Shown piece by piece: positions 1 through 33,544 of a stretch of DNA of 64,000 nucleotides. The stretch covers positions 12,432 to 76,431 of the forward strand of contig CACDUI010000003.1 of the NCBI GenBank assembly GCA_902555985.1. The letters run 5' to 3'. The translations under genes and the position numbers were made by a program. The stretch comes from an uncultured Candidatus Actinomarina sp. (GTDB taxonomy: Bacteria > Actinomycetota > Acidimicrobiia > Actinomarinales > Actinomarinaceae). Position 1 is the first letter of the stretch. Every line of letters starts with the position of its first letter. The notes under the pieces are model-generated. The model saw only the letters and a list, made by a program, of their open reading frames with translations, had not been told where the DNA came from and did not search any database.

Positions 1-1
1 A

Positions 2-4020: not shown

Positions 4021-4094
4021 GGGCCTGTAGCTCAGTTGGTTAGAGCAACGGACTCATAATCCGTCGGTCGCAGGTTCGAGTCCTGCCGGGCCCA
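4021..4094 (+). tRNA. tRNA with CAT anticodon (elongator Met, or tRNA-Ile2 read via lysidine)
   Basis: Manual fold: acceptor gggcctg/cgggccc (one GU pair), D arm tagctcagttggttagagc, anticodon stem acgga/tccgt with loop ctCATaa, T arm cgcaggttcgagtcctgc. There is no initiator-type C1:A72 mismatch or GGG/CCC anticodon stem. CCA is not encoded. Confidence 0.85.
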
Positions 4095-4096
4095 CA

Positions 4097-6076
4097 ATGA
4101 GTGAAAATGCAAAATTGATAAAAATGAATTCACGAATTATAGGAACAATTTTTGCATTGACTCTTTTAATACCCCCAAATATAGGAATAGATTTTTTTGG
4201 AATCAGCTTTGAAGACATACCATTAATATTTGTTTTCTTTTATTTACTTACTAAAAAAATTAGAAAATATGAAATTAAAAAATTTGATAGAGCCTATTTA
4301 TTTTTTATTATTTTCTTTGTTTTATATACAAGTTTTTTAGTTGACGAGGTAAAAATATTTAATCAAACAAATCTTAGGTTCTATTTTTACTTTAGTCTTG
4401 TATATTTATGTATCGATTTTCTTAACAAAAATAATGATAAAATAATAGAATTTTTTGAACCAATTTCAATTGTGATGATTGCAAATTTTCTTTTAATTCT
4501 CTTTCAAATACCTCTCCCAGGAACTATAGATGGTTGGATTTCAAACAATACCGTCAGTATGAACATATTTGCTTCTGGTAGGTTAGGAGGTATTCAAGGT
4601 GGCGGTCCAAATGTAATTGGAATTTTCTGCGCAATATATTCAGTTATTTGCTTGTTTAAAATATTAAATGATAAGGATTCTAAAAAATATTTTATTGAAA
4701 ACAAAACAAATACCTTCTTGCTTATAATCTCATTGATAAATTTACTTTTTACATTTTCAAGAGGATCTTTTCTTGCCTTAGTTGTTGGTATGTTTTCTTT
4801 ATTGATTTTTACTGAAAAATACAGTAGAAGTTTTAAATATAAGATAGTAATAATCTCAACTTTATTTGGAGTCATAGCAATATATATTTTCCCATCTATA
4901 TTTTTAAAAGAATCAAATCGAAGTTTTTTAAATAGCTTGGGATTACAAAATGCTGAAATATTCATTGGTGTTGGGGGTGGGAATTATATTAAAAGTGTTT
5001 ATAAAGATTACTTAATTACTTTAGAAGATGATGTTTTAATTGAACAATTTAATATTTCATATTCAGAAAGAGAAAATGTGTTAGAAAGTGTTAATAATGA
5101 AAAATCGTTACCTGCTCCTGTTGAGGGATATCTTAAATTAAAATTTGATTATCAAGATAATTTTTTACCAAGGTCAACTATATCTTTTCATTATTCCGAT
5201 GATGGAGTCAGTTGGAAGCAGCTTGGGTCAAATCACACAAACGGTGTAATAATAGATCTAATTGAGAATGATTCTTATTTTGAAGTTGGTGGATGGGGAG
5301 ATGGACAATCACCTGGAGGTCAGTATTTAAGTGGTTTTTTGAATAAAGTAATTATTCAGACAGATGAGTATAATCGTGAATTTACATTTTCAAAAGGAAA
5401 TAGAGATGAAGATTATTACCTTCTTACTCCTGAGTTTAGAAATGAATATGAAAATAACGTTGAATTTAAAAATAATTCAATTCGTCTAGATCGCCCAAGA
5501 GACTACTGGGTTGCATTACCTAACGAAGTAAACTTATCTGGTAAAGATTTTGAAATTTTAATAGATTTAAATCTTGATTCTATACCAAAAGGCCACGAGA
5601 CTCTCTTTAGTCAAAGTTCTATATTGAGATTAAATGAAGAATTTAATGATCAATCATGGAAGTGGTCAATTATTGATGGTCGGATGTACTTTTTCTGGAT
5701 TGAAGAAGTTATATCGGGATATTCAAATTTTGTTGGTGGCCAGAGTTTAAGATCTGGAAAGCTTATTTCAAATAATGGAAAATTTGACTCTATCATTTCA
5801 AACTTTTCACTTTCTCAATATGATGAAATTACAACCTCACATAATGGATTTCTTACTATGGCTGTAGAGTATGGTTCATTTCTAATATTATTAATTTTAA
5901 TTTTTGTAGTTTTTTTAATTATGAGAAATTTTAATAAATCAAATAAACTAGAAATTTCATTAATTCTTATGTTTTTGGTTCAAAACACTACAAATGATCT
6001 TGTTTATGCGCCTGATGTAGCAATATATTTTTGGATTGTCCCTTTTTATTTTTTATCCAGTGTTTTTAAAGATTAG
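4097..6076 (+). CDS. O-antigen ligase / Wzy_C-family polytopic membrane protein with a large (about 330 aa) extracytoplasmic insert, possibly lectin/LamG-like
   Basis: 659 aa. The N-terminal half is multi-TM with an FSRGSFLALVVGM-type Wzy_C motif. The central region is hydrophilic and beta-rich (WKWSIIDGRMYFFWI) and is followed by C-terminal TM helices. The gene starts 3 nt after tRNA-Met; an alternative start is M10 at 4124. Confidence 0.5.
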   Translation: MSENAKLIKMNSRIIGTIFALTLLIPPNIGIDFFGISFEDIPLIFVFFYLLTKKIRKYEIKKFDRAYLFFIIFFVLYTSFLVDEVKIFNQTNLRFYFYFSLVYLCIDFLNKNNDKIIEFFEPISIVMIANFLLILFQIPLPGTIDGWISNNTVSMNIFASGRLGGIQGGGPNVIGIFCAIYSVICLFKILNDKDSKKYFIENKTNTFLLIISLINLLFTFSRGSFLALVVGMFSLLIFTEKYSRSFKYKIVIISTLFGVIAIYIFPSIFLKESNRSFLNSLGLQNAEIFIGVGGGNYIKSVYKDYLITLEDDVLIEQFNISYSERENVLESVNNEKSLPAPVEGYLKLKFDYQDNFLPRSTISFHYSDDGVSWKQLGSNHTNGVIIDLIENDSYFEVGGWGDGQSPGGQYLSGFLNKVIIQTDEYNREFTFSKGNRDEDYYLLTPEFRNEYENNVEFKNNSIRLDRPRDYWVALPNEVNLSGKDFEILIDLNLDSIPKGHETLFSQSSILRLNEEFNDQSWKWSIIDGRMYFFWIEEVISGYSNFVGGQSLRSGKLISNNGKFDSIISNFSLSQYDEITTSHNGFLTMAVEYGSFLILLILIFVVFLIMRNFNKSNKLEISLILMFLVQNTTNDLVYAPDVAIYFWIVPFYFLSSVFKD

Positions 6077-7209
6077 GAGTTTTTCAATCCCTCAAGTTCT
6101 GCATAATCTGTAAAATTTTCAGTTATGATTAAAACTTGTCTACCATCATCTAATTCGTAAGGTTTAACTGGAATTGACAATTTATTAATATCCGATAAAT
6201 TAGATTCTCTAAAATTCCACAATATATTGACAGCATTATTTAAGGATAAATTTTCGTCAATAACAAATGCATCCTCTAAAGTATTTATCAAAGTAGTTAG
6301 TTCACCCAATGATCTAAAATTTTTAATTTCTTCCAAAAGTTGTAAAATTATATATTGCTGCCTATCGTTTCTTGACAAATCACTAACACCCTCCATTTTT
6401 TCCCATTCAGAAATATCGTTTCCATTTTTATCAATAACTTTTTCCCCAACAAGAACTTCTGTGTTTCTAGATACAACCCAATTAAGTGCAGTCAATCCCT
6501 TAACAGTTTGACATCCTTTTTGTAATTCAAAGGAAAAACCTTCTCGCTGAGTTTTTTCAACGCAGATTTCAATACCACCAAAAGAATCAATTATTTTCTC
6601 AAATCCCTCAAAATTAAAACTAGCAAAATGATTAACAGTTAAGCCAGTAAGTATCTGAATATTTGCAGCTAAATTTTCTGCGCTATTACCACAGTCATTT
6701 TTAGAAAATGTGGAGTTGATTCTTGCAATTGATTGAGTACATGAATTTTTAATAAGTAAATCTCTTGGTATTGAAAGAAGATACTGATCTGAGGTCTCCT
6801 CATTGATTATTCCAAGAATTATAACGTCCGCTCGTTGTCCATCAACATAACCTCTGGAAGCTGATGAATTAGTTGTTCTTTTATCTGATCCGATAATTAA
6901 GTATGTAGTGAAGTTTTCTAATGAAGTATTTGCAATTGTAAACTTGATTAATTCTTGTGCTGTATTTTCATCAACGATTTCAATTGATTCTTCTATATCT
7001 TCACTGTTTATTTCTTTAGGATCTTCGACATTATTATTTGTTTGTACAGTTGTGGAAGTAGTTGTAATTCCTTTTGATATATCCTCAATTACATCTGGGT
7101 CAAACTCAGTAGTTTCAAAGCTTGGTATTAAAAAAGAATAAGCCAAGCCTCCTATAGCAAAAATAATTATAAATAATAACAGGTATCTTTTTTGATTATC
7201 CATATTCAA
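6073..7209 (-). CDS. LytR-CpsA-Psr (LCP) family cell-wall glycopolymer phosphotransferase
   Basis: 378 aa with an N-terminal TM anchor. The LCP core (RADVIILGIINEETSDQYLLSIPRDLLIKNSC) resembles the LCP signature RSDTIMLxxxxxxxKxxxLSIPRD. Confidence 0.7.
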   Translation of the reverse strand: MNMDNQKRYLLLFIIIFAIGGLAYSFLIPSFETTEFDPDVIEDISKGITTTSTTVQTNNNVEDPKEINSEDIEESIEIVDENTAQELIKFTIANTSLENFTTYLIIGSDKRTTNSSASRGYVDGQRADVIILGIINEETSDQYLLSIPRDLLIKNSCTQSIARINSTFSKNDCGNSAENLAANIQILTGLTVNHFASFNFEGFEKIIDSFGGIEICVEKTQREGFSFELQKGCQTVKGLTALNWVVSRNTEVLVGEKVIDKNGNDISEWEKMEGVSDLSRNDRQQYIILQLLEEIKNFRSLGELTTLINTLEDAFVIDENLSLNNAVNILWNFRESNLSDINKLSIPVKPYELDDGRQVLIITENFTDYAELEGLKNS

Positions 7210-7243
7210 TCAAATTAAGAGTATAACCATATAATATATAATT

Positions 7244-7966
7244 GTGACAAAAATCAAATGTGTTATTGCTGCTGGAGGTCTTGGTACGAGGCTTCAAGGG
7301 TTTAGGCAAAATGATAAAACAAAAATCTTAATTGAAGTTAATGGTACCCCCATGATAAATCGTCAAATTCATCAGATAGCCAAATGGGGGATAGAAGAAT
7401 TTATTATAATTACGAATCCAGACTTTGATGAAATAATCAGAGAAGTTACAAGTAAAGAATTTCCAGATTTAAATATTAATTACTCTATTCAAGAATCACC
7501 AAAAGGTATTTCACATGCTTTTTCAAAGGCTGAAAAATTTGTCAACAAAGACGATATATTGATACTAGTTTTAGGAGATAATTTTTTTGGTGAGAATCCC
7601 TTGTTAGATGTTGATTTTTCAAAGCTTGAAAAAAATAAAGGTAGCATCATTTTTACTAAAGATGTAGACAATCCGAATGAGTTTGGAGTTGCAGAAGTAG
7701 ATAAAAATGGAAAAGTATTAGATATTCAAGAAAAACCTAATAATCCAAAAAGTAATCTTGCAGTTGTAGGTATATATATTTTTGACCATCTGGCTATAGA
7801 TAATATTAACCTTTTGAAACCTTCAAAAAGAGGTGAGTATGAAATAACAGATTTGATAAATATTTATATTAATCAAGATAAATGTTCAAATATTGAACTT
7901 TCTAGTTGGTGGATTGATGCTGGAACGCCCGAAAGGATACTAGACCTTGAAACTAGATTACTTTAA
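7244..7966 (+). CDS. Sugar-phosphate nucleotidyltransferase (RmlA/GlmU-like NTP_transferase)
   Basis: 240 aa with a GTG start. The N-terminal VIAAGGLGTRLQ fits the GxGTRL nucleotide-binding loop of sugar-1-phosphate nucleotidyltransferases. Confidence 0.65.
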   Translation: MTKIKCVIAAGGLGTRLQGFRQNDKTKILIEVNGTPMINRQIHQIAKWGIEEFIIITNPDFDEIIREVTSKEFPDLNINYSIQESPKGISHAFSKAEKFVNKDDILILVLGDNFFGENPLLDVDFSKLEKNKGSIIFTKDVDNPNEFGVAEVDKNGKVLDIQEKPNNPKSNLAVVGIYIFDHLAIDNINLLKPSKRGEYEITDLINIYINQDKCSNIELSSWWIDAGTPERILDLETRLL

Positions 7967-8989
7967 AATATCAAGTTTTTTAATATAGTTAAATAGAAAT
8001 AGAAACTGCACTAGATAAGCCATAAGAGCAATCATTGAAAAAACATTATTTAAAAAAACATATCCTAAAATTATAAAAAAATTGAAAATACTGTAAATTT
8101 TGAATATTAACAAAACTTTTTTTTCAGAAAAGCCTGTCGCAAGAAGTCTATGAGAGATATGATCAGTTCCGCCAGTAGTAGGTGAAACGCCTCTTTTATA
8201 CCTTCCTTCCAAGATAATTAAGAAATCTAATAAAGGGATAGTAAAAAATAATATTAATGGACTTAATGTATAGCTAAGAGTATATTGTTGACCACTGTTC
8301 CATGTAAATAAAATACTAAGAAACCCTAAACAAAAACCTATAAATAAACTTCCTGAATCACCCAGGTATAATTTTGCAGGTGGGAAATTAAATATAAAGA
8401 ATCCCAATAATACAAAAAGTAAAACTACAGATATATCTGTCAACTTATTTTGATTTAGAACATAAGTAAGGATTATTGATTGGTAACAAATACTTCCAGT
8501 AACAACCACAGCAAGACCATCCATATTATCTATAAAATTAATCGCATTAATTAATAAGACTATCCATAGAATTGATCCAAAATAATTTATTAAATTGTTA
8601 AAGTCAAAATTTAATAGTGATTCTATATTTAAGAATATATCTAAATTAATGATTGGAACAGCTACAAACAAAAATTGAAAGAAAAGTTTAGTTTTCCATT
8701 TTAAATTAAAAAAATCATCTACAGCACCTACAACAGAAAGCATTAATGCAAAGAAACCAATTAAAGCAAAATTATAATTAGCATCACCTAAGAAACTAAC
8801 ACCTATAAAAAAAGCAATAGCAGTCGAAATACCCCCTAAGGGAGGAATATTTTTATCTTTTAATCTTTGTTCATTTTTATCTGATGCTTTTTTAAATTTA
8901 AATGATTTTGTTATATGCAAAATACCCCAATTTAGTATTCCAGATAGAATAAAAGTTAAAATTGCTGTGTAATAAATATTTAGCTGCAT
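7958..8989 (-). CDS. Polyprenyl-phosphate N-acetylhexosamine-1-phosphate transferase (WecA/TagO/MraY family)
   Basis: 343 aa polytopic membrane protein. The motifs VGAVDDFFNLKWK and NAINFIDNMDGLAV match WecA/MraY family signatures. Confidence 0.7.
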   Translation of the reverse strand: MQLNIYYTAILTFILSGILNWGILHITKSFKFKKASDKNEQRLKDKNIPPLGGISTAIAFFIGVSFLGDANYNFALIGFFALMLSVVGAVDDFFNLKWKTKLFFQFLFVAVPIINLDIFLNIESLLNFDFNNLINYFGSILWIVLLINAINFIDNMDGLAVVVTGSICYQSIILTYVLNQNKLTDISVVLLFVLLGFFIFNFPPAKLYLGDSGSLFIGFCLGFLSILFTWNSGQQYTLSYTLSPLILFFTIPLLDFLIILEGRYKRGVSPTTGGTDHISHRLLATGFSEKKVLLIFKIYSIFNFFIILGYVFLNNVFSMIALMAYLVQFLFLFNYIKKLDILK

Positions 8990-10069
8990 CTAATCTTCAC
9001 TCTTTTCGTTATAAATTTTTGCAAATTGTGATGCAATATATAGTGTTGAGTAGTGTTTTGAAATTTCTTTTCTATTTTGACTACTAATTGATATTTTTTC
9101 ATTCAAAAATTCATTAATCTTATTTTCTAAATATTTTATATCTTTTGAGTTTAACAAAATTGTATTTTCAAAATTATTAATATATTCAGTACCGTTGTTT
9201 TCATATGCTACAACAAATAAGCCAACATACATTGCTTCAAGTAATACTCTAGAAAATCCTTCATGGTCAGAAAGAGATAATAACAAGTCATAATTATGTA
9301 TCTCTTTTTGTAAGTCTATGTATCCTAGGTAATTTAAAGATGAGATTTTCTTTAAATCTTCTAGTTCTTTTTGTGTAAGGGAGTTTGGATTACCTTTATC
9401 AAGATCACCTGCTAAATAGAAAGTTACATTTTGTGAACTGAAGTTATTTGATAGTTTAATATATTCATCAATTCCCTTGTCTTTAAGCAATCTTCCAGCC
9501 ATAATTATTTTCTTATTTTCATTAAAATTATTTTTCAATAAGTAGTCATAAGTATTAATTCCAGAACTTTCAATTAGATATGAGTTGTTTTTGTAATGGG
9601 AATATTTATTAAACGATAATTTGTCTTTTGAATTTTGATAAATTATATTTTTATAAGTCTTGTTAATTAATGTTATAAAAACTGGTTGGAGTATTATTTT
9701 AAATATTTTTGCTGATATATTTTTACTAAAAAAATAACCCAAACCAGTAATAGATAAAGTAGATTTAAAGTTTTTGTTTAAAAACAAATTAGAGATCATA
9801 AATAAAAAGCCTGTTTTTAATGTAAAAATATGAAAAATACTTCCATCATCGATATTTTTAAGTATTTTTCTTAAACTTAACACTGCGAAGAAATCAAAAT
9901 ATTTCTCTCTAGCTATCTTCCAGTTTAAAGATTCTGCATAATGCTTTTTAAGTTCATTCTCATTAGCAACTGGGCATATAGATCTGAATCTATAATTACT
10001 CAATTCATTTACTATTTGGCTTCTTGATTGGATTAATATTCTATCCCAATGAGCAACATAATTTATCAT
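8990..10069 (-). CDS. Glycosyltransferase family 1 (GT4-type, GT-B fold)
   Basis: 359 aa with the C-terminal motif EGFSRVLLEAMYVGLFVVAYENNG (EX7E-like retaining GT-B motif). Confidence 0.65.
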   Translation of the reverse strand: MINYVAHWDRILIQSRSQIVNELSNYRFRSICPVANENELKKHYAESLNWKIAREKYFDFFAVLSLRKILKNIDDGSIFHIFTLKTGFLFMISNLFLNKNFKSTLSITGLGYFFSKNISAKIFKIILQPVFITLINKTYKNIIYQNSKDKLSFNKYSHYKNNSYLIESSGINTYDYLLKNNFNENKKIIMAGRLLKDKGIDEYIKLSNNFSSQNVTFYLAGDLDKGNPNSLTQKELEDLKKISSLNYLGYIDLQKEIHNYDLLLSLSDHEGFSRVLLEAMYVGLFVVAYENNGTEYINNFENTILLNSKDIKYLENKINEFLNEKISISSQNRKEISKHYSTLYIASQFAKIYNEKSED

Positions 10070-10111
10070 TACTAATTATATTAAATCTATTAATTGTTAA
10101 CATGACATAAT

Positions 10112-11311
10112 ATGAACATTGTCATAGTTGGTACAGGCTATGTTGGCTTAGTTACTGGTGTTGGTTTCGCAGAACAAGGTCATAAAGTATCATTTATAGA
10201 CCTTGATTCTTCAAAGATTGAAAAACTTAAAAATAAACAATTACCTTTTTTTGAACCGGATTTAGATACTTATTTTTCAAAAGAAGAAAACTTTAAACGT
10301 ATGTCTTTTAATTCAAGCTATAACTCACTTAATTGGGATGATTCGGAGATTGTTTTTATTTGTGTTCAAACCCCTAATAATACTGAAACAAACTCGGTTG
10401 ATACAAAATTTTTAGAGTCTGCGATTAGTGAAATTTCAAAATTAGATAATAAAGAAATAGTTATTACAGTTAAATCAACGATTCCACCATATGAGATTGA
10501 AAATGTCTGTAATAATGTTGGTTATGATCAAAATCTTCTAACTTTCAATCCTGAATTTTTACGAGAAGGAAGTGCTGTCTATGATTTTTTCAATCCAGAT
10601 CGAATTGTAATAGGTGGTTTAAATACAGAAAAAACAAATAAATTGCAAGAGCTATATAAAGGCTACGAAGCAGAAATTATAGTAACTGACCCTATAAGTT
10701 CACAATTAATTAAATATCTTGCAAATACATATCTTCCAATGAGATTATCTTTTGTAAACGAGGCCACAAGACTCTCGAATTATTCAGGTGCCAATCTGAT
10801 AGATGTTTTAAAAGGTGTAGGGCTAGATACTAGGATTGGTTCGCATTATTTCAGGCCTTCACCGTCCTGGGGTGGATCATGTTTTCCAAAAGACTTAGTA
10901 GAAGTAAATAATTTTTATGAAAAAGATAAATTAAAATTACCTCTAATTTCGAATATCATTGAATCAAATAACGAACACTTAAATTGGACTGTAAATCAAC
11001 TTCTTTCCTTGAAAAATAATAATAATCTGGAAGAATTTGTTTTAGTTGGCGCAGCTTTTAAAGAAAATACAGATGACTTTAGGAATTCTCCTACACTTGA
11101 TATTTATAAAATATTAGATGATATGGGAGAGCAAGTCACTATATTAGATACTGAATTTGAAGTACCAAATCATAATTATATTTCATCAGTTCAAGACGTG
11201 GCTTCAAAATCATTAATTTCAATTATGTATCCTGTTAATGATGAATTAGATAAAAAATTATTAGATTATACATCTCTAAATAAATGTATTATTTATTATC
11301 CTTGGAGATAG
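10112..11311 (+). CDS. UDP-glucose 6-dehydrogenase family nucleotide-sugar dehydrogenase
   Basis: 399 aa. N-terminal Rossmann motif IVIVGTGYVGLVTG and catalytic-Cys motif GGSCFPKD are present. Confidence 0.75.
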   Translation: MNIVIVGTGYVGLVTGVGFAEQGHKVSFIDLDSSKIEKLKNKQLPFFEPDLDTYFSKEENFKRMSFNSSYNSLNWDDSEIVFICVQTPNNTETNSVDTKFLESAISEISKLDNKEIVITVKSTIPPYEIENVCNNVGYDQNLLTFNPEFLREGSAVYDFFNPDRIVIGGLNTEKTNKLQELYKGYEAEIIVTDPISSQLIKYLANTYLPMRLSFVNEATRLSNYSGANLIDVLKGVGLDTRIGSHYFRPSPSWGGSCFPKDLVEVNNFYEKDKLKLPLISNIIESNNEHLNWTVNQLLSLKNNNNLEEFVLVGAAFKENTDDFRNSPTLDIYKILDDMGEQVTILDTEFEVPNHNYISSVQDVASKSLISIMYPVNDELDKKLLDYTSLNKCIIYYPWR

Positions 11312-11312: not shown

Positions 11313-12242
11313 GTGAATATATTAATAACAGGTGGTGCAGGGTTTGTTTGTTCCCACTTAGCTGACAAATTGTATGAAAAAAAACACAACTTATTTTTAC
11401 TTGATAATTTATTAACTGGAAACAAAAGAAATATAGATCATTTGTTAGGAAATGAAAATGTTAGATTTATTGAACACGATGTTCAAAATCATATTGAAAT
11501 TTCTGATGAAATAGATTTTATATTTCATTTTGCAAGTGCAGCATCTCCAATTGCTTACCAAGAAAATCCTATAAATACTTTAAAAGCAGGAAGTATTGGG
11601 ACTATCAACACTCTTGGATTAGCTAAAGTAAAAAAAGCAGACTATCTTTTAGCATCAACTTCAGAAATTTACGGTGATCCTGAAGTCTCGCCACAAAGCG
11701 AAAATTATTGGGGTAACGTTAATCCAAATGGAGAAAGAAGCATGTATGATGAAGCAAAACGGTTTGCTGAAGCAGCTACTGCAACATACAGCAGAACATA
11801 CAGTTTAAATACAAAGGTTGTGAGGATCTTCAACACATATGGTCCAAGAATGCAATTGAATGATGGTAGAGTTGTGACTAACTTTATTGTGCAAGCACTC
11901 AATAATGAAAATATAACTGTTTATGGGGATGGATTACAAACTAGGAGTTTTTCTTATGTTGATGATACAGTAGGTGGAATTATTGCCTTGATGGAATCTG
12001 ATCATAATGATGTGTTTAATATTGGAAATCCTAACGAAATAACTGTTAATGAACTTGCAACAAGAATTATCAGTTTAACAAATTCTAATTCAAAGTTAAT
12101 CAATAAAGATTTACCGAAGGATGATCCCAAACAAAGAAGACCGGACATTACTAAGGCAAAAAATTTACTTAAATGGGAACCTAAAATCGAACTTGAAGTC
12201 GGTTTAACTAAAACTATTGATTGGGTTAACTCACAATTGTAG
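11313..12242 (+). CDS. UDP-glucuronate decarboxylase (UDP-xylose synthase), extended SDR
   Basis: 309 aa with TGGAGFVCSHL. The hallmark UXS motifs YDEAKRFAEAATATYSR, RIFNTYGPRM and DGRVVTNFIVQAL are present. It lies immediately downstream of the UDP-glucose dehydrogenase gene. Confidence 0.75.
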   Translation: MNILITGGAGFVCSHLADKLYEKKHNLFLLDNLLTGNKRNIDHLLGNENVRFIEHDVQNHIEISDEIDFIFHFASAASPIAYQENPINTLKAGSIGTINTLGLAKVKKADYLLASTSEIYGDPEVSPQSENYWGNVNPNGERSMYDEAKRFAEAATATYSRTYSLNTKVVRIFNTYGPRMQLNDGRVVTNFIVQALNNENITVYGDGLQTRSFSYVDDTVGGIIALMESDHNDVFNIGNPNEITVNELATRIISLTNSNSKLINKDLPKDDPKQRRPDITKAKNLLKWEPKIELEVGLTKTIDWVNSQL

Positions 12243-18555: not shown

Positions 18556-19002
18556 ATGAAACCGATACTTTTTGAAAGCAAGTCAAATTCAGATCATAGA
18601 GGTACAGTTTCATTTACAAACGAATTAAATCTAAGTACAGCTGTCAGAACCTACAAAGTAATTAATAATCAATCTAAAATTGTTAGGGCATGGCACGGAC
18701 ATAAAATAGAAGAAAAATGGATAAGCGTAGAAGATGGTGAGTTCTTGGTTTGTGCAGTTAAAATTGATGATTTTGAAAACCCAAATAAAAATCAAGAAGT
18801 CTTTAAGTTCAACATGACACCTGAAAGTGGGATATTATATATTCCAAATAATTATGCTAACGGTGCAATGAATTTGACTGAAAATAATGCTGTCAGATAT
18901 TATTCATCTCTTCTTTTAGAAGAATCTATAAAAGACGACTATCGATTTGAATCTAATTTTTGGGACCCATGGGGCGAGTTCAGTCCAAATCTTTATGAAT
19001 AG
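18556..19002 (+). CDS. Cupin-fold sugar epimerase/isomerase-like protein (RmlC / FnlB C-terminal-like)
   Basis: 148 aa, small and beta-rich. It lies between two SDR genes in a nucleotide-sugar module. The assignment is tentative. Confidence 0.4.
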   Translation: MKPILFESKSNSDHRGTVSFTNELNLSTAVRTYKVINNQSKIVRAWHGHKIEEKWISVEDGEFLVCAVKIDDFENPNKNQEVFKFNMTPESGILYIPNNYANGAMNLTENNAVRYYSSLLLEESIKDDYRFESNFWDPWGEFSPNLYE

Positions 19003-25948: not shown

Positions 25949-27604
25949 TTGAAACTATTAATTTATAATTTTTTATTTTTGTTTAAACGAAACAGATATT
26001 CTTATTACAAAGCTTCTGGTAAAAATTATTCGTATTCACATCCAGACTATTTTCAAGATATCCTTACTTTTTTAACTAAGAACGTCAATAAAAAAGATTT
26101 AAAAAACATATTTCAAAACTTTCTCTTGGAGAAAACTTACGTTTTTGGAAGAAATGTTGAAATTATTTTTAATAAGGATTTCTTCAATAATTTTATATTT
26201 AGTAACAAAGTAAAAAAGCCAGCATTTTTTAATAAAGCTGATGTTAAAGTTCCTTATGAAATTGGAAGATTACAATTTTTACAAAAAGTAATGCTGCATC
26301 TCTTTATAGAAGAAAATCAGGATACTAAGTTAAATATAAGTTACCTTAATGAAGTTATTTCATCACAAAAAAATAAAATAATTTGGAATAGTCCTATGGA
26401 TGTTGCAATAAGAATGATGAGTTTAATATTTGTAAAAAATTTTAGTAACAAAATTGAATTCTTTAAAGAATCTTCTATATACGAAAATTTAGATTCAATT
26501 ATTTCAAAAGATTTTGAATTTGTAAAAATGAATTATGAAAAAAAAGGTAATGTCGTTGGAAATCATTATTTTGTTGAATTGACATCTACATTGTTTTTTA
26601 TTGCTAATTATGATTACGATGGCAAAGAAGTAGATTTAAGATTAACTATTGACGAGATTTCAAAAGAAATAGAATTACAATTTAATAAAGATTTTACAAA
26701 TTTTGAAGGTTCTTCTCATTACACAGCACTCATGATGGAAGCCTTAGTAGTTATTTATATATCCCTTCGAAGTCTAAAGATAGAAAATGAACTTTATAAA
26801 AAAATTAAGGAAATACTAATTGTTAATAATTATTTTCTTAAATTAATTACTAATAATGGTGAGTTATCTCAAATAGGAGATAATGACTCCGGAAGATTAT
26901 TTTATTTTCAACATGATGAACAAGAGCCTTTAAACTTACAATGGTTAAGTTTTCTAATAGAAGAAATTATTCCTGAGTGTAAAAATTATAAACATATTTC
27001 TGAAAATATTGATGAATCAGAAAAAATTGACTTTTCCGTATTAAATAATGTGACTCATAAAGAAATTAAAGCATTCAAGAATGATTTCATCCACTATTCC
27101 TTTCCAGAATTTGGATTATTTATATGGAAGAATTCAGATGATTATTTTTCAATAAGATGCGGTGAAGTTGGCCAAAATGGTGTTGGGGGACATTCTCATT
27201 ATGACCAGCTATCCATTGAGTGTTTTTTAAACAATCAATGGATTGCAAGAGATCCTGGCACTGGAACATACACAGATGATATCAAGAAAAGAAATAAATT
27301 TAGATCTCTCGAATACCACTGGGGGCCTCTGGTAGAAATGAATTTACCAAAAGAAGATGCATTTGATTGTTTTAAATTAAATTATATGAGTAATGGAAAA
27401 GTTTTAAAATTTGATAAGTTTAATTTTGTTGGATATGCAGATTTTAATGGAAAAAGAGTATATCGAAAAGTTTCATTATCTGAGGAGACTATCACTATTC
27501 AAGATTTTTCAAGTGATGTTGAACTTGATGAATATACTTCATGGGGAGAAGAAAATAATGGAATCAAAGTTGAGTTTTCAGAAGGATATAAAAGATTTAT
27601 ATGA
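25949..27604 (+). CDS. Heparinase II/III-like family protein
   Basis: 551 aa. The C-terminal GHSHYDQLSIECF resembles the Hepar_II_III motif GHGHADxLSF. Confidence 0.5.
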   Translation: MKLLIYNFLFLFKRNRYSYYKASGKNYSYSHPDYFQDILTFLTKNVNKKDLKNIFQNFLLEKTYVFGRNVEIIFNKDFFNNFIFSNKVKKPAFFNKADVKVPYEIGRLQFLQKVMLHLFIEENQDTKLNISYLNEVISSQKNKIIWNSPMDVAIRMMSLIFVKNFSNKIEFFKESSIYENLDSIISKDFEFVKMNYEKKGNVVGNHYFVELTSTLFFIANYDYDGKEVDLRLTIDEISKEIELQFNKDFTNFEGSSHYTALMMEALVVIYISLRSLKIENELYKKIKEILIVNNYFLKLITNNGELSQIGDNDSGRLFYFQHDEQEPLNLQWLSFLIEEIIPECKNYKHISENIDESEKIDFSVLNNVTHKEIKAFKNDFIHYSFPEFGLFIWKNSDDYFSIRCGEVGQNGVGGHSHYDQLSIECFLNNQWIARDPGTGTYTDDIKKRNKFRSLEYHWGPLVEMNLPKEDAFDCFKLNYMSNGKVLKFDKFNFVGYADFNGKRVYRKVSLSEETITIQDFSSDVELDEYTSWGEENNGIKVEFSEGYKRFI

Positions 27605-28983
27605 AAATAAAAAACTTAAATTTACCTTTACTTATATTTGCAATAGCATTCTTTTTGGAGGGTTTAGACGCTTTTTCTATTGCTAAAATTCCTTTATCTT
27701 GGATCGGAATACTAGCTTATGTCTTTATATTTATTTATCTAAAATTTACTAAAAAAATTGAATATATTTTTGACATAACATTCATTAAGTATTTTCTGTA
27801 TTATTTAATTTTTGTCACAATAATCAGAGCCATAACCTTTGATTTAAACATGCCAGAATATGCCTCGACTTCACTTGTTGAATATATTGGACTTAGATTG
27901 TTGAAAATCTTAAGTTTTTACACAATAATTTCTCTAACTATTCACTTTATAAAGAAAAAAAATATTGAATACGTAATTAAACTTTTTGCATATATTGCCG
28001 TATTTATTTCTCTTTTATCTTTGTATTCTTATTTTTCTTATATATTCGATTGGACTGATTTTTCGCGTACCAGGGCTGGGACTGGTGGTTGGTCACAACC
28101 TATAAGAAGGGCGTGTTCAATTTTAAGGAATTATGGAACATTTAGAGAACCAAGTTTTCTTGCGGTATGGGTAACCCCAGCCATTCCTCTTATTTTTTAT
28201 TTAGCTAGGAAGTCAAAGATATGGTATTTAATCTCATTAATTCCAATATTGTCATTAGTTTTAACGAGAAGCCTTACCGGAATCATAAGTGTTATATTTG
28301 TTTTTTCTATTGCAATACTTTTAGATTTTTATAAAAATAGAACCTTTAATTTTTTGTTAGTATTACCAATTTTATTTATATTTCTAATGACTATATTTGG
28401 TAATAACTTTGGTTATAAATTTCCTGCACTTGACCCTTCAATGTGCCCACCAGAATCAGCAGATAAATGCGATTGTTCTATTTATGACAATGAACAAGAT
28501 ATTGCTAAGAATTCAAGTAACGTATATCAAAGTGTTTTTAATAGGATTTCTATAATTGCTTCTGGTGGAATCGGTGGATTTGAAAATATTGACATATTGA
28601 GTCAATACATTGGGAACAGTAATTTAAAAATTTTTGGAGATGGCCTTGGGCTTTCAAACATTAGATACTCTCCAGAGTTTGCTGAAATTACTAAACAAAC
28701 AAAAGATGGCCAATCAATTTACAGAAATCCTGGTCAAGTAGTGTCATTTAATAATCTTTATGCAAATTTATATTTTTCTGGTGGAATTATTGCTTTGTTA
28801 ATGTTTTTAATAATTTTAAGAAATATTTTTAAACAGTTATTTAAAAATGATTCAATTCTTGATACTTATTTATTTATTGGTTTTCTAACGATATTGCTCA
28901 TGTTTTTCTTTCAAGCAGAAGAATTAAGCTCTCAGCTTGCAATTTATTTTGGTTTAATAACAATGAAAATGTCACATGAATAA
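27601..28983 (+). CDS. O-antigen ligase/polymerase-like polytopic membrane protein
   Basis: 460 aa and multi-TM. It has an Arg-rich loop (FSRTRAGTGGWSQPIRRAC) of the type seen in Wzy_C proteins. Confidence 0.45.
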   Translation: MKIKNLNLPLLIFAIAFFLEGLDAFSIAKIPLSWIGILAYVFIFIYLKFTKKIEYIFDITFIKYFLYYLIFVTIIRAITFDLNMPEYASTSLVEYIGLRLLKILSFYTIISLTIHFIKKKNIEYVIKLFAYIAVFISLLSLYSYFSYIFDWTDFSRTRAGTGGWSQPIRRACSILRNYGTFREPSFLAVWVTPAIPLIFYLARKSKIWYLISLIPILSLVLTRSLTGIISVIFVFSIAILLDFYKNRTFNFLLVLPILFIFLMTIFGNNFGYKFPALDPSMCPPESADKCDCSIYDNEQDIAKNSSNVYQSVFNRISIIASGGIGGFENIDILSQYIGNSNLKIFGDGLGLSNIRYSPEFAEITKQTKDGQSIYRNPGQVVSFNNLYANLYFSGGIIALLMFLIILRNIFKQLFKNDSILDTYLFIGFLTILLMFFFQAEELSSQLAIYFGLITMKMSHE

Positions 28984-30196
28984 TACAAAAAAAATTCTTA
29001 TCGTCACACATCAATTCATACCACACCAAAGCCCAAGGACCACGCGTTGGAAATTGCTATATGATGAATTGATTGAATCAGGTTGTGATGTCACAGTTAT
29101 TACTGGAACATCACAATTAAGTGAAGATCCTAATATAAAATATGTAGGCAATAAAAAGGCTAGTGGAATTGTCAAAAACTTAAGAATCCAATCAAATATT
29201 AAACAGGATTCACATTATAAAAATTATTTATACAAACTACTTAAGAAAATTTATAGATTTTTTTATAAATTTTTTGCATGGCCAGACTATACAATGTTTT
29301 GGATATTTTCTATTTGGAAAAATCGAAAAAAAATTGATATAGATTATGATTTAATTATATCCGTGAGTCTTCCATTTTCTTCTCATGTTGCTGCATATAT
29401 TATTAATAAAGATAAAAATAAAAAATGGATAATGGACATTGGGGATCCATTTAGCCTAAAGACTAACGCCTTTGAAAATAATCGATTTCTCTATAAATCT
29501 CTTAACTATTATTTCGAGAATAAATTTTATAAAAAAGCATATCAAGTAGTTTTTACTCATCAAGAATCTGCTGATGAACATAAAATCTTTTTTAATATGC
29601 CAGAAAATAAAGTCACTATTGGTAGCCCTATCAGTACTTTTAGTCAGGAATTATTTCAAAAATCAGTTTCATTTAATTATGAAGCAAAGCCGATTACGAT
29701 CGGTTACTTTGGAGTACTTACTAAAGGTGTTCGGTCTCCCAGCCAGGTATTAAAGTTTTTTCAGCAAACAGATTTTGTACTACATTGGTATACAAATTCA
29801 GATTCAAAAGAGATGATTAAACAGAATAAAATTGATTTTAACCGTAATAAATTATTTGATATGGTCACTAGAAACGAAGCTTTAGAAAAAATGGTAACTT
29901 CTTTACATTGTCTTTTATCTATAGGGAATTTAAATCCGTCTCAACTACCTAGTAAAATTATTGAATACATATCAACGGGAAAACCAGTTTTACATTTTGT
30001 AGAAATCAAAGACGATCCAGTATTAGAAATTGCTAAAGAATTTAGCAATCTTATCGTTATTGATAAAAATTCAAATATTACGGAAGTTGAACAACAATTA
30101 AATAATGTGTTTATAAATATTGAAAAGTTTGATATTAAGAAATTTAATGAAAATTACTCAACTAGGGCAGTAACTAATAAGTTAAATATAATTTAA
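28976..30196 (+). CDS. Putative GT-B glycosyltransferase (GT4 N-terminal domain-like)
   Basis: 406 aa. The N-terminus ILIVTHQFIPHQSPRTTR is typical of GT4 N-terminal domains. Confidence 0.45.
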   Translation: MNNTKKILIVTHQFIPHQSPRTTRWKLLYDELIESGCDVTVITGTSQLSEDPNIKYVGNKKASGIVKNLRIQSNIKQDSHYKNYLYKLLKKIYRFFYKFFAWPDYTMFWIFSIWKNRKKIDIDYDLIISVSLPFSSHVAAYIINKDKNKKWIMDIGDPFSLKTNAFENNRFLYKSLNYYFENKFYKKAYQVVFTHQESADEHKIFFNMPENKVTIGSPISTFSQELFQKSVSFNYEAKPITIGYFGVLTKGVRSPSQVLKFFQQTDFVLHWYTNSDSKEMIKQNKIDFNRNKLFDMVTRNEALEKMVTSLHCLLSIGNLNPSQLPSKIIEYISTGKPVLHFVEIKDDPVLEIAKEFSNLIVIDKNSNITEVEQQLNNVFINIEKFDIKKFNENYSTRAVTNKLNII

Positions 30197-31147
30197 AATT
30201 TTTGACCAATTTTCGTTGTATATAAGCGCAGAAGATTTTTTAAGTTTTAAATTGATTGCTTGTTCAATTTTTTCACTAGCACTTTTTATATCATTATATT
30301 TGTATATAAATACATTTTCACTCATAAAATATTTTGAGTAAGGTTTATCAGGGACAATAATTTTTAATCCTAAATTTTGAGCTTCATATAAAGGCAAGCC
30401 AACAGTTTCGTACTCGCTTGCATGAAAATATATTTCATTTTCTGACATCACACTTAGTGTCTGATCCTGAGTTTCTGTATAAACACAATTAAAATCATTT
30501 ATATTTTTTGGAGGATTGATAACAGTAATCTCATTATTTTTTGTAATCGACTTTAAAGCTTGTACCATAAAATCAAAATTTTTATTTGAAACCTTACTTC
30601 CAAAAAAAACTATTCTATTTGATTTATTTTTTGCATTAACTGTGACTTCTTCTATTTCTCCAATTTCTATAATTTTATTTGCAAATTTTTGTCCGATCAC
30701 TTCACTCATATGTTTTAGTTGGACTATTACATAGTCAGATGATTTGATACTTCTAGATATAAATTTTTTAAGAACTATATTTTTCAAATCTTTAGATACA
30801 AAAGGCAGAATATTTTGTATAAGAACAAAAGATTTATTGTTCGTTTTAAAACCAAAGTTACCAAAGTGAACAATTGCATCATTAGATTCAATTAATTTTC
30901 TTTGAGTTTTATTTGTTATTAAATATAGAAAAGGATGGAGAAATCTTTTATTAGTTAGTTTTATAAATGTCACATATTGATTTTCTAAAGACTGATTTTT
31001 TAGCTCATTATAAAATTCATTTTCTGAATACAAAACTGTAATCTCAGTTCCTGCTTCAACTAGTAATTCAAATGCTTGAACAAATAATTTTACTCCTCCA
31101 AGAGATTTGACACCACAAGCATTTAAAACTAGTTTTTTTCTCACCAT
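30182..31147 (-). CDS. Glycosyltransferase family 1 (GT4-type)
   Basis: 321 aa with the C-terminal motif ETVGLPLYEAQNLGLKIIVP. Confidence 0.55.
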   Translation of the reverse strand: MVRKKLVLNACGVKSLGGVKLFVQAFELLVEAGTEITVLYSENEFYNELKNQSLENQYVTFIKLTNKRFLHPFLYLITNKTQRKLIESNDAIVHFGNFGFKTNNKSFVLIQNILPFVSKDLKNIVLKKFISRSIKSSDYVIVQLKHMSEVIGQKFANKIIEIGEIEEVTVNAKNKSNRIVFFGSKVSNKNFDFMVQALKSITKNNEITVINPPKNINDFNCVYTETQDQTLSVMSENEIYFHASEYETVGLPLYEAQNLGLKIIVPDKPYSKYFMSENVFIYKYNDIKSASEKIEQAINLKLKKSSALIYNENWSKILNYI

Positions 31148-31199
31148 TTCAATGATAGTTGTACATTAATAAATATTTAATCACTAAAATCATAAAGTA

Positions 31200-32279
31200 G
31201 TGACTAATAAATATGATATTGCTTTAGTAGTAGGAACAAGGCCAAATTTTGTTAAGGCTTCACCACTTTTAAAAAAATTAGAAGAACAGGGAAAAAAGGT
31301 CTTATTTATACATACAGGACAACATTTTGATAAAAATATGTCTAAGAGTATTTTTGAAGATTTGAGTATAAGAACTCCTGATATAAATTTAAATGCCCCT
31401 AATGATTCTCAAAGCAAACAATTTCAATATATTGTCCAAGAATTACAAAAAGTTTTCAGTAATTGTGAAATTGACAAAGTTGGAGTTTTTGGAGACGTAA
31501 CCTCAACTTTAGCTGCATCAATAGCCGCAAAACAATCAGATCTTTATTTATTTCATGTTGAATCAGGCCTACGATCAAATAATTTAAGCATGCCAGAGGA
31601 ACGTAATAGAATAATGGTAGATGCAATAAGCGACCTGCTTTTTATACCATCTGAAGACGCAAAAGAAAACTTATTAAAAGAAAAAGTGTCTTCAGACAAA
31701 ATTCACAATGTTGGAAATATTATGATTGATACTTTATTTGAAAACAAATCCAAAATAAGTAATAATTCAAAAATTGTTAAAAATAGTTTAATTATTAACA
31801 AACCATATTTTGTAATGACCCTACATAGGCCATCAAATTTAACTGATATTACCTTACAAAATATTTTTGAGGCAGTCAGTAGCTTTACAGAAGATTATCA
31901 AATTATTCTTCCAGCTCATCCAAGACTTAAAAATTATATTAACGAAGAAGATATTGAGTATAAAAATATTACCTTGATTGACCCGTTATCTTATATTGAC
32001 TTTATGGCTCTCGTTTACGGATGTGAATTAGTGCTCACTGATTCTGGGGGCATACAAGAAGAGACAACTTATTTAGGAATCAATTGTTTAACACTTAGAG
32101 AAGAAACAGAAAGACCAATAACAGTTCAAGAGGGCACTAATAAGGTTGTTGGTACTGATAAGGAAAATATAATTATTGAAATAAATAATGTTTTAGGCAG
32201 TAAAATTTCAAAAGAAGCAAAAATTAAATATTGGGATGGTGAAACCTCAAATAGAATTTTTCAAATTTTATTTGATTAG
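31200..32279 (+). CDS. wecB: UDP-N-acetylglucosamine 2-epimerase (non-hydrolysing)
   Basis: 359 aa. The N-terminal IALVVGTRPNFVKASPL matches the GTRPExIK motif. It is followed directly by a wecC-like dehydrogenase. Confidence 0.8.
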   Translation: MTNKYDIALVVGTRPNFVKASPLLKKLEEQGKKVLFIHTGQHFDKNMSKSIFEDLSIRTPDINLNAPNDSQSKQFQYIVQELQKVFSNCEIDKVGVFGDVTSTLAASIAAKQSDLYLFHVESGLRSNNLSMPEERNRIMVDAISDLLFIPSEDAKENLLKEKVSSDKIHNVGNIMIDTLFENKSKISNNSKIVKNSLIINKPYFVMTLHRPSNLTDITLQNIFEAVSSFTEDYQIILPAHPRLKNYINEEDIEYKNITLIDPLSYIDFMALVYGCELVLTDSGGIQEETTYLGINCLTLREETERPITVQEGTNKVVGTDKENIIIEINNVLGSKISKEAKIKYWDGETSNRIFQILFD

Positions 32280-32281
32280 TT

Positions 32282-33544
32282 ATGAGTAATTTTAAATTTA
32301 ATGTGGCAGTAATTGGATTAGGCTATGTTGGCTTACCATTAGCTATTGAGGCTGCAAATAATAAACTTAAAGTCGCTGGTTATGACATTAATGAATCTTT
32401 AGTAGGTAATCTTAATAAATCTCTATCTCATGTTGAGGATATTTCAGATAAAGATCTTGAAGATGCATTTTCAAACCAACTCTTAATTACTTCTGATCCA
32501 GAAATATTGGGAGATTCCGAGTATATTGTAATTAGCGTTCCAACACCGTTGACTGATTATCAGCCAGACTTAAGTTATGTTGAAGCAGCAACAAAAAGTA
32601 TTGCTGAAAATTTAAAAAAAAATCAAATAATAATTCTGGAATCTACAACATATCCTGGAACTACATTAGAAATAGTTAAACCAATACTTGAAAAAAATAC
32701 AAGTTTGGTCGCTGGAGAAGACTTTTTATTAGGATACTCACCCGAACGAATAGATCCTGGTAATAAAGAGTGGACATTCAAAAATACTCCGAAAATAGTT
32801 AGTGGTATAAATGAAAAATCTCTCAAAAAAATATCAGAATTTTACAATTCCATAATTGATGAAGTAGTCGAAGTTTCTGGTACTAGAGAAGCAGAAATGG
32901 TTAAATTAATCGAAAACACTTATAGGCAAGTAAACATTGCAATGGTTAATGAGTTAGCGATATTATCAAACATGTTAGACATAGATATTTGGGAAGTGGT
33001 AGATGCTGCAAAAACAAAACCTTTTGGGTTTCAATCATTTAGGCCCGGACCAGGAGTAGGGGGTCACTGCATTCCAATTGATCCTAAATATTTGTCATTT
33101 AAAACACGACAAATTGGACAGCCTGTTCGCTTTGTTGAATTGGCTCAAGAGATTAACAACTCAATGCCAAATTATGTTATTTCAAGAATTAGTGAATTAA
33201 TGAACAAAAAAGAAATACTTTTGAAAAACTCCAAAATACTTGTTCTTGGTGTAGCTTATAAAAAAGATATTGGGGACACCAGGGAATCACCAGCAATAGA
33301 TATAATTGAATCACTTTTAGATAAAAGCGTAGAAGTCTCTTTTTATGATCCATTTGTTGATGAACTTATAGTAAATAAAGAGAGTATATTAAAGGATGAA
33401 AATTTAGAAAACCTATCAAACTATGATTTGGTCATAATCCATACTCCACATACGTCTTTTAATAATATAGATTTTGAGAATATTAAATCATTAATATTTG
33501 ATACCACAGGAAGTTTTACGATTCCAAATGCCGAGAGGATATAA
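32282..33544 (+). CDS. wecC: UDP-N-acetyl-D-mannosamine dehydrogenase-like nucleotide-sugar dehydrogenase
   Basis: 420 aa with VIGLGYVGLPLA and catalytic GGHCIPIDP. The pairing with wecB supports the assignment. Confidence 0.7.
   Translation: MSNFKFNVAVIGLGYVGLPLAIEAANNKLKVAGYDINESLVGNLNKSLSHVEDISDKDLEDAFSNQLLITSDPEILGDSEYIVISVPTPLTDYQPDLSYVEAATKSIAENLKKNQIIILESTTYPGTTLEIVKPILEKNTSLVAGEDFLLGYSPERIDPGNKEWTFKNTPKIVSGINEKSLKKISEFYNSIIDEVVEVSGTREAEMVKLIENTYRQVNIAMVNELAILSNMLDIDIWEVVDAAKTKPFGFQSFRPGPGVGGHCIPIDPKYLSFKTRQIGQPVRFVELAQEINNSMPNYVISRISELMNKKEILLKNSKILVLGVAYKKDIGDTRESPAIDIIESLLDKSVEVSFYDPFVDELIVNKESILKDENLENLSNYDLVIIHTPHTSFNNIDFENIKSLIFDTTGSFTIPNAERI

Follow-up and report, generated by a model that had tools for sequence, protein, structure and literature searches.

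What kind of locus begins directly behind a tRNA-Met gene in Candidatus Actinomarina, which counts, among free-living marine bacteria, as one of the smallest and most abundant? In the 64,000-nt stretch of DNA that we analysed (the window, to which positions refer unless another locus is named), tRNA-Met is followed by 26 back-to-back open reading frames (ORFs) that lie on both strands and fill 4097–33544 (the cluster). Nearly all of them belong to polysaccharide-synthesis families in Pfam and NCBIfam, which bears out an initial annotation that placed a glycan locus of about 27 genes immediately after this tRNA. The same annotation took the locus for a hypervariable, strain-specific island. One part of that claim stands: conspecific sequences differ sharply here, with an edge at tRNA-Met. 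The other part does not, because gene content is conserved and the variation is allelic.

The reading that we favour, with a probability of roughly 0.75, is that this is an order-wide conserved locus for one or two wall-linked acidic heteropolysaccharides of Ca. Actinomarina, and that it exists as divergent versions that recombine. The evidence comes from comparison with related loci, which carry L-numbers as labels. A scan with the ppc protein, at one genome per species, gave 22 loci from Ca. Actinomarina, Actinomarinales and related marine actinobacterial genomes; 45 loci anchored on DnaG reach beyond the tRNAs (3 from assemblies and 42 from metagenomes); and loci anchored on AsnB were used for the middle of the cluster. 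A look-up of the exact DnaG sequence of the window gave no record, and the DnaG anchoring is accordingly by homologues. Domains were assigned with Pfam and NCBIfam (using equivalog cut-offs), tRNAs with ARAGORN and Rfam, and matches in the PDB with sequence searches (phmmer). Transmembrane (TM) segments are predictions from a hydropathy scan.

Gene set and order are ancestral to Actinomarinales

The left third of the locus is syntenic in all 45 DnaG-anchored loci, over a range of DnaG identity from 97% to 48%. Its order is dnaG, tRNA-Asn, an SCP2-domain gene, tRNA-Met, a polytopic protein, a LytR-CpsA-Psr (LCP) enzyme, a nucleotidyltransferase, a WecA-like transferase, a glycosyltransferase (GT), UDP-glucose dehydrogenase (UGDH), UDP-xylose synthase (UXS) and two further GTs. 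When window proteins were searched by tblastn against the ppc-anchored loci, the right third was present and syntenic in 17 of the 17 that extend far enough upstream, in the order AsnB, flippase, heparinase-like protein, 460-amino-acid membrane protein, GT, GT, WecB and WecC, with protein identity as low as 31–60%. The middle is syntenic in L089–L093 and L185 (protein identity down to 42–72% in L091–L093), and the complete cluster, 29.4 kb long as in the window, occurs on one other contig, of 501 kb, which carries the two overlapping loci L090 and L179. GC content was 26–33% across the 27 loci checked.

The sole difference in gene content found in the cluster concerns the slot of a wzy gene. 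At positions 119–4666 of L180–L184 (equivalent to about 16.3–17.6 kb of the window), the single Wzy_C gene gives way to genes for four proteins: a Rieske-domain protein of 524 amino acids, a GT2, a Wzy_C protein and a GT4/GT1. Apart from this slot, all Actinomarinales loci that extend into the region share one set of genes in one order, and no empty site was found among the 45 DnaG-anchored and 17 ppc-anchored loci. This locus is no insertion: both the genes and their arrangement go back to the ancestor of Actinomarinales.

Several observations could nevertheless be read as marks of a strain-specific, horizontally acquired island that integrated at tRNA-Met and varies in gene content between strains. 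The cluster adjoins a tRNA; its GC content is 28.1% compared with 31.4–31.7% (about 31.5%) in the flanks, a deviation for which the initial annotation had proposed a check; nucleotide identity drops exactly at the 3′ end of the tRNA; and metagenome contigs tend to break there. We consider such an island very improbable. It is at odds with a gene set that keeps its order and place throughout Actinomarinales, and conserved content across relatives is what the initial annotation had itself named as evidence against an inserted, strain-specific element. The arrangement of tRNA-Asn, SCP2 gene, tRNA-Met and first gene is fixed in 9 of 9 DnaG-anchored loci scanned, and no integrase, recombinase or transposase Pfam domain occurs in 4097–39786. 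The last 16–30 nt of tRNA-Met, searched on both strands with at most one mismatch per six positions, match only the tRNA itself within the window. The initial annotation had likewise noticed neither an integrase nor a repeat of the tRNA 3′ end.

Two side observations concern these related loci. In the deeper-branching L091 and L092, no ppc stands between the WecC-like gene and that of the M15 peptidase (positions 19343–21780), and in L012 ppc has an unrelated context, so its position beside the cluster is not universal. In the long-read metagenome assemblies that contain L082, L090 and L179 (ERZ285480xx), many cluster genes, for example those for UGDH, LCP and GT1, are fragmented by apparent frameshifts; these are probably homopolymer errors in AT-rich sequence and not pseudogenes.

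Divergent versions and their borders

Constant gene content is combined with extreme sequence divergence. Across genome pairs, the flanks share 94–98% nucleotide identity, whereas inside the locus there is either no alignment or an identity of 59–83%. The left break coincides with the 3′ end of tRNA-Met in three genome pairs, two of them conspecific. By blastn, the window and L081 (single-amplified genome (SAG) GCA_902609265.1) are 94.4% identical over 1–4095, and the alignment stops with the final nucleotide of tRNA-Met; there is no alignment over 4096–6096, and identity thereafter is 63–78%. The proteins follow the same pattern: UppS, a class II aminoacyl-tRNA synthetase and DnaG are 96–97% identical between the two, whereas the cluster proteins are 35–61% identical, except UGDH and UXS (77–84%). 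The blastn alignment of the window with L083 (87.3%) also ends at 4095. L121 and L124 are 97.6% identical over 4.8 kb (98–100% in most intervals of this shared flank) until 1 nt beyond tRNA-Met, where identity switches abruptly to patches of 66–69%.

On the right, comparison with the conspecific L007 (SAG AG-447-I21) gives 59–83% nucleotide identity over 23.5–39.7 kb and 93–98% from about 39.8 kb. This breakpoint falls within 39700–39810, at the mmpL stop and the NIF3 start, where identity in successive 100-bp intervals rises from 72% (39600) through 85% (39700) to 98% (39800). The divergent segment thus spans about 4096–39790 (35.7 kb) and includes ppc, the M15 peptidase gene and mmpL, 6 kb or so past the right edge at 33.5 kb that the initial annotation had drawn.

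From the 3′ end of tRNA-Met (4096) to about 39.8 kb, the segment exists as many deeply divergent versions that are homologous gene for gene, in collinear blocks of 35–85% identity. Where two loci have DnaG proteins of 95% identity or more, their LCP, nucleotidyltransferase and WecA-like proteins show a bimodal mean identity: it is either 92–100% or 46–58%, with no pair between. The versions also recur. The allele set of the window is found again at 95–97% identity in an independent metagenome contig (L100), and its type is common, across species, to L082 and L179; the set of L081 matches that of L083, which belongs to a different species, collinearly at 79–86%. The first gene is the most variable of the locus: 35 sequences fall, at 60% identity, into no fewer than 11 types. 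Its two length classes, of about 660 and about 807–834 amino acids, each occur in at least three DnaG clades, and the type present in the window (type 0) is also found in a clade with DnaG only 53% identical, in which the first gene is 66% identical. Towards the right, conspecific pairs are mosaic: from WecB to the M15 peptidase, the window is closer to L001 and L002 than to its conspecific L007.

Together, the bimodality, the sharing of alleles across clades and the abrupt borders argue for homologous allelic replacement and not for fast vertical change. Fast vertical evolution under relaxed or positive selection, without recombination, would accommodate the comparison of L081 with L083, which share a type and are 79–86% identical in the cluster and 84–90% in the flanks. 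It does not accommodate conspecific loci that are either near-identical or 46–58% identical, the abrupt switch at the tRNA in L121 and L124 after a nearly identical flank, or allele types that ignore the grouping by DnaG and core genes and are common to several clades; we give this explanation next to no weight. Replacement, by contrast, would have the versions exchanged whole or in pieces, across species and clades, by homologous recombination in the conserved flanks, and we infer that the near-invariant tRNA-Met serves as the left recombination anchor. Frequency-dependent selection acting on the cell surface, with phage as one possible agent, is a plausible means by which this diversity would be maintained.

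As a stand-in for metagenome read recruitment, we compared where metagenome contigs end. In the clade of the window, 16 of 23 contigs end no more than 700 bp downstream of dnaG, compared with 3 upstream (p = 0.004), as would be expected of assemblies that branch there; the asymmetry is significant in this clade only. That metagenome assemblies break at the locus matters for the reading of pangenomes and hypervariable regions, as does the divergence itself: gene clustering at 90–95% identity would count such alleles as ‘flexible’ or ‘singleton’ genes. By swapping divergent alleles, a streamlined genome can hold a large diversity of surfaces at constant gene content.

A more far-reaching interpretation, which we offer tentatively and think doubtful, is that the locus is a surface-glycan ‘supergene’, that is, an otherwise invariant ‘core’ wall-polymer pathway present throughout the order as a set of ancient, co-adapted allele blocks of 30–36 kb, a polymorphism that species and genera have in common and that homologous recombination shuffles. 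In this view, too, tRNA-Met would form the left anchor, and ppc, the peptidoglycan peptidase and the dimorphic MmpL may be swept along or co-selected. If this were true, a 1.1-Mb genome would diversify its phage-exposed surface in a way that pangenomics based on presence and absence would misread.

The dimorphism of mmpL (37195–39786) was seen in L001–L021, in which there are two allele types that are about 67% identical to each other and 88–99% identical within a type, even across genera, and their distribution does not track the core genome. In the conspecific pair L001 and L002, mmpL is the main differing stretch (64–78% nucleotide identity); one GT region (70–73%) and a patch where the locus ends on the far right differ as well.

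The predicted wall-polymer pathway

The cluster contains, by family, two Wzy_C proteins, one LCP enzyme, one sugar nucleotidyltransferase, one WecA/MraY-family transferase (Glycos_transf_4), one PglC-like Bac_transf protein, six GT-B glycosyltransferases, two nucleotide-sugar (NDP-sugar) dehydrogenases, two WecB equivalogs, five proteins of the short-chain dehydrogenase/reductase (SDR) fold (Epimerase/RmlD family), a cupin, AsnB, a Polysacc_synt_3 flippase and a Hepar_II_III_C protein. At family level, this agrees with the initial annotation in its LCP, WecA-like and PglC-like enzymes, six GT-B transferases, three Wzy-like proteins, flippase, nucleotidyltransferase, AsnB and heparinase-like protein. 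Coding is back to back throughout 4097–39786, and the gaps without assignment are all of about 150 bp or less.

We propose that repeat units would be built on undecaprenyl phosphate (uppS lies just upstream of the locus), started by the WecA/TagO-family transferase, the PglC-type transferase or both, and extended by the six GT-B transferases. The donor sugars would be made in situ: UDP-glucose, UDP-glucuronic acid (UDP-GlcA), UDP-xylose (UDP-Xyl), a UDP-galacturonic acid (GalA)-like sugar, UDP-N-acetylmannosamine (UDP-ManNAc) and its uronic acid (UDP-ManNAcA), a 6-deoxy sugar and a uronate amidated by AsnB. After a Wzx-type protein had flipped the units across the membrane, they would be polymerized by one of the polytopic Wzy-like proteins, and the membrane-anchored LCP enzyme would transfer the polymer to peptidoglycan. 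Two initiating enzymes and three Wzy-like proteins leave room for two products, or for a linkage unit and a main chain. No mycolic-acid genes have been found and an outer membrane is considered unlikely (López-Pérez et al. 2020, PMC7771536), so the pairing of a WecA-like enzyme with LCP fits a wall-linked polymer better than lipopolysaccharide; the initial annotation had drawn the same conclusion, which suits a monoderm actinobacterium. A literature search that paired Actinomarina with LCP gave no match. The locus is the best candidate for a universal wall-linked polysaccharide pathway of Ca. Actinomarina, with GlcA, Xyl, a GalA-like sugar, ManNAcA, a 6-deoxy sugar and an amidated uronate as the likely building blocks.

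The first gene (4097–6076, + strand) encodes a polytopic, Wzy_C-like membrane protein (Pfam Wzy_C, 33 bits) with about seven TM segments, six of them within residues 14–268 and one at 590–608, and a central β-rich domain with strands over residues 343–533. Its AlphaFold2 model, from an alignment of 27 sequences, has a mean pLDDT of 63. A Foldseek search of the model against the PDB gave no match at E ≤ 1e-3 (a concanavalin A (ConA)-like protein had E 0.011 and WaaL E 0.2), and we therefore make no claim about its fold. The second gene (6073–7209, − strand) encodes the LCP glycopolymer-to-peptidoglycan transferase, with 82.9 bits in Pfam, 75.5 bits to TIGR00350 (cut-off 62.3) and one N-terminal TM segment.

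Next come a short-form, RmlA/AglF-like sugar-1-phosphate nucleotidyltransferase (7244–7966, + strand; Pfam NTP_transferase, 146.8 bits; below equivalog cut-offs in NCBIfam) and the polyprenyl-phosphate N-acetylhexosamine-1-phosphate transferase of the WecA/TagO/MraY family (7958–8989, − strand; Pfam Glycos_transf_4, 108 bits; 11 TM segments). The latter scores 91.6 bits against the wecA model TIGR02380, whose cut-off is 326, and is assigned at family level only. A GT-B glycosyltransferase of the GT4 family (8990–10069, − strand; Pfam Glycos_transf_1, 72 bits) separates them from a UDP-glucose 6-dehydrogenase-like NDP-sugar dehydrogenase (10112–11311, + strand; TIGR03026, 322 bits against a cut-off of 189.8) and a UDP-glucuronate decarboxylase, that is, UXS (11313–12242, + strand). 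The UXS matches structures of human UXS1 in phmmer at E 7e-102, in accord with the UDP-Xyl-forming enzyme of the initial annotation. Two more GT-B transferases (12226–13287 and 13280–14392, both − strand; Glycos_transf_1, 29 and 123 bits) precede two SDR enzymes on the same strand. The first (14393–15361) is an extended, UXS/ArnA-like nucleotide-sugar enzyme by Pfam, NCBIfam and PDB sequence search; the second (15363–16337) is UDP-glucuronate 4-epimerase-like, with top full-length PDB matches to 6zl6 (E 6e-52) and MoeE5 (E 1e-37), which we take to be UDP-GlcA 4-epimerases.

The variable slot of the locus is occupied in the window by a polytopic Wzy_C protein (16479–17573, + strand; 44 bits), a candidate polymerase or ligase. 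It is followed on the + strand by a four-gene sugar-modification module consisting of an SDR (17620–18552), a cupin (18556–19002), an RmlD-like reductase (18947–19897) and a WecB-type 2-epimerase (19894–21051; 221 bits to the wecB equivalog, cut-off 210), which together probably make a 6-deoxy-hexosamine. The initial annotation had called a 6-deoxyhexosamine module FnlABC-like; the FnlABC/CapEFG pathway to N-acetyl-L-fucosamine (L-FucNAc) was considered and rejected at family level: the best match to the FnlA/CapE model TIGR04130 has 36.7 bits against a cut-off of 730 and lies on a different gene (14393–15361). The cupin and reductase ORFs as listed overlap by 56 nt, the reductase having a TTG start, and by 8 nt in the gene calls of relatives (L089); the listed start of the reductase is therefore probably too early.

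A GT-B transferase with a weak Glyco_transf_4 match (21048–22229, + strand) and a small PglC-type polyprenyl-phosphate sugar-1-phosphate transferase (22209–22844, − strand; Pfam Bac_transf, 193 bits; TIGR03025 over the C-terminal domain only), the second initiating enzyme, stand before the right third. There, an AsnB-type glutamine amidotransferase (22894–24726, + strand; TIGR01536, 405 bits, cut-off 267) would, to judge from its gene context, amidate a uronic acid. It is followed on the same strand by a Wzx-type flippase (24726–25943; Polysacc_synt_3; at least nine TM segments), a soluble protein with a Heparinase II/III C-terminal domain (25949–27604; Pfam, 39.6 bits; no TM segment by the hydropathy scan) and a 460-amino-acid polytopic membrane protein (27601–28983) with about nine TM segments and a large loop. 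The last of these is conserved order-wide and is the third Wzy-like candidate; it has no match in Pfam or NCBIfam. The PDB sequence search returned no match for the heparinase II/III-like protein or the cupin. A glycosyltransferase with a weak Pfam match (28976–30196, + strand) and a GT-B transferase (30182–31147, − strand; Pfam) lead to the final pair, WecB (a 2-epimerase of UDP-N-acetylglucosamine; 31200–32279, + strand; 301 bits to the wecB equivalog, cut-off 210) and a WecC-like NDP-sugar dehydrogenase (32282–33544, + strand), which probably make UDP-ManNAcA. The top scores of the dehydrogenase come from UDP-ManNAc dehydrogenase models (293 and 255 bits, below the cut-offs of 750 and 459), and TviB scores are similar.

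The products might instead not be linked to peptidoglycan: a capsule or exopolysaccharide in free form is conceivable, as are protein glycans transferred by the first protein acting in a Wzy_C/PglL-like manner. Wzy_C-domain proteins include O-oligosaccharyltransferases, the first protein has an extra, weakly ConA-like β-sandwich domain, and two initiators with three Wzy-like proteins leave space for more than one product. The structural matches of the first protein are not significant, though, and the LCP gene, second in the locus, is conserved everywhere; we judge these alternatives rather unlikely.

Several points weigh against a conserved, recombining wall-polymer locus as we have described it. 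Gene content is not fully constant, given the extra Rieske/GT2/GT1 cassette of L180–L184. The right border varies, lying between the M15 peptidase gene and mmpL in L001 and L003, and in L001 and L002 essentially only mmpL and one GT differ. No one genome pair spans both borders: the left one comes from L081, L083 and L121/L124, and the right one from pairs with L007 and L001–L003. Tangled assembly at tRNAs conserved among co-occurring species could account for part of the asymmetry of contig ends. Several assignments (WecA, TuaD, WecC and FnlA) fall below equivalog cut-offs, and polymer chemistry, the number of polymers and their attachment to peptidoglycan are predictions from protein families.

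At the left edge, tRNA-Asn(GTT) (3607–3682, + strand) belongs to the conserved flank and occupies the equivalent place in 9 related loci. Between it and tRNA-Met is a small ORF with an SCP2 (sterol-carrier-like) domain (3653–4012, + strand; Pfam, 55 bits), which was also gene-called at the equivalent place in L081–L083, L085 and L179 and is 95 amino acids long in relatives. tRNA-Met(CAT) (4021–4095, + strand) was, like tRNA-Asn, identified by both ARAGORN and Rfam; the divergent segment begins at the 3′ end of this tRNA. The first ORF of the cluster has its start at 4097, which lies 2 nt beyond the discriminator base of the tRNA, and in 23 of 23 lineages checked (L081, L083, L100 and L116–L175 among them) the long first-gene ORF begins 1–15 nt past that base. 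This spacing leaves no room for a promoter or a Shine–Dalgarno sequence between the two genes, and suggests co-transcription with tRNA-Met and a near-leaderless first-gene mRNA made by processing of the tRNA 3′ end.

The flanks consist of core genes, as the initial annotation had stated for dnaG upstream and for ppc and MMPL downstream; they occupy at least 12 kb to the left of the locus and 24 kb to the right. On the left are uppS, the class II aminoacyl-tRNA synthetase gene and dnaG. On the right, a mixed-strand stretch of non-glycan genes assigned by Pfam (33498–39786) still lies inside the divergent segment: ppc (+ strand), a gene for an M15 D-Ala-D-Ala carboxypeptidase-like protein (35961–37106, − strand) and that for the MmpL/HAE3 resistance–nodulation–division (RND) transporter (37195–39786, + strand). 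Then follow NIF3, RNase H, RNase P RNA, ccm and ilv/leu genes. The RNase P RNA is of bacterial class A (43903–44242, − strand; 269 bits) and coincides with a local GC peak. Further right, a 504-amino-acid fusion joins RNase_T/DEDDh exonuclease and GIY-YIG nuclease domains (49789–51303, − strand). At about 21000–22400 of L002 (about 44.3–45.6 kb of the window), a second short patch of low identity covers thioredoxin-like, TPR and CcmH genes, which are 76–83% identical in nucleotides to those of the conspecific L001 and L003, compared with 91–97% around them.

Comparison with known systems

Actinomarinales have a published envelope island, flexible genomic island 1 (fGI1), described as one order-wide island of 43–79 kb with 28% GC, five tRNAs, cassettes with tRNA-fragment repeats and variable content; its repertoire includes sialic, legionaminic and pseudaminic acid, heptose and 3-deoxy-D-manno-oct-2-ulosonic acid (KDO) genes and restriction–modification systems, and its table lists selA, argS and fmt (PMC7771536). 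The island is also described as a hypervariable region (HVR) bounded by tRNAs, which has been placed at 85–90% of the distance from dnaA and is bordered by selA (bioRxiv 10.64898/2026.04.03.716425); neither dnaA nor selA lies within the window. That our locus is, or belongs to, this island is a possibility with some points of agreement. The organisms, the envelope-glycan (‘glycotype’) theme, a GC content of about 28%, the link to tRNAs and signs of intergeneric transfer are common to both, the KEGG table of fGI1 contains wecB, wecC, asnB, UGDH, UXS1 and UDP-glucuronate 4-epimerase (PMC7771536), and Met is among the tRNAs enriched at one boundary of the HVR (bioRxiv 10.64898/2026.04.03.716425). 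In size, in its five tRNAs, in its cassettes with tRNA-fragment repeats and in its content variation within species, however, fGI1 does not match the locus of the window, which is 29.4 kb long (35.7 kb as the divergent segment), has both of its two tRNAs at the same end, is flanked by core genes and shows a near-constant repertoire and no tRNA repeats. Furthermore, the fGI1 table contains none of ppc, dnaG, uppS, mmpL and wecA. We consider identity with fGI1 or the HVR improbable and, because the published features of fGI1 are missing here, regard the locus as a second glycan locus of conserved architecture, set apart from the variable-content fGI1 on the basis of those features, not of chromosomal position.

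The closest parallel in population structure is with replacement ‘glycotype’ islands (Lopez-Perez and Rodriguez-Valera, PMC4898812; PMC7771536). These likewise have a fixed position, a surface-polysaccharide function, a lower GC content, alternative versions within a species, a sharp drop in identity at conserved flanks and exchange by double crossover, including between species. The locus described here is unusual among them in that its alternative versions are homologous gene for gene, with an order kept across a whole bacterial order, and are not different gene sets. Replacement is also often partial, which gives mosaics, and carries ppc, the M15 peptidase gene and mmpL along.

In biochemical terms, the locus resembles Gram-positive systems such as the wall teichoic acid genes TagO/TagA/TagTUV, tuaA–H of Bacillus subtilis and cap5A–P of Staphylococcus aureus. 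Shared elements are polyprenyl-phosphate initiators of the TagO/WecA and TuaA/CapM types, a TuaD-like UDP-glucose dehydrogenase, a 2-epimerase and a probable ManNAc dehydrogenase like Cap5P and Cap5O, GT4 transferases, a Wzx flippase, a Wzy polymerase and an LCP ligase. The likeness is one of families: no cluster protein has an equivalog-level NCBIfam match to TagO/WecA, TuaC/TuaD, TagU or FnlA/CapE (the TuaD model gives 241.6 bits against a cut-off of 700, and the TuaC model 38–50 against 550), and no Pfam match at E ≤ 0.001 was found for a TagA/WecG-type (GT26) ManNAc transferase. The Actinomarina locus additionally has UXS, the AsnB amidotransferase, the heparinase II/III-like protein and three Wzy-like proteins.

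O-antigen and capsule loci that combine a conserved architecture with deeply divergent alleles, such as the serogroup variants of Streptococcus pneumoniae cps and the K loci of Klebsiella, offer a further likeness: their framework or flanking genes are conserved, they vary centrally around wzy and GT genes, they recombine in the flanks, and adjacent genes hitch-hike. Here, in contrast to those loci, nearly the entire content is conserved, and the architecture spans genus-level divergence.

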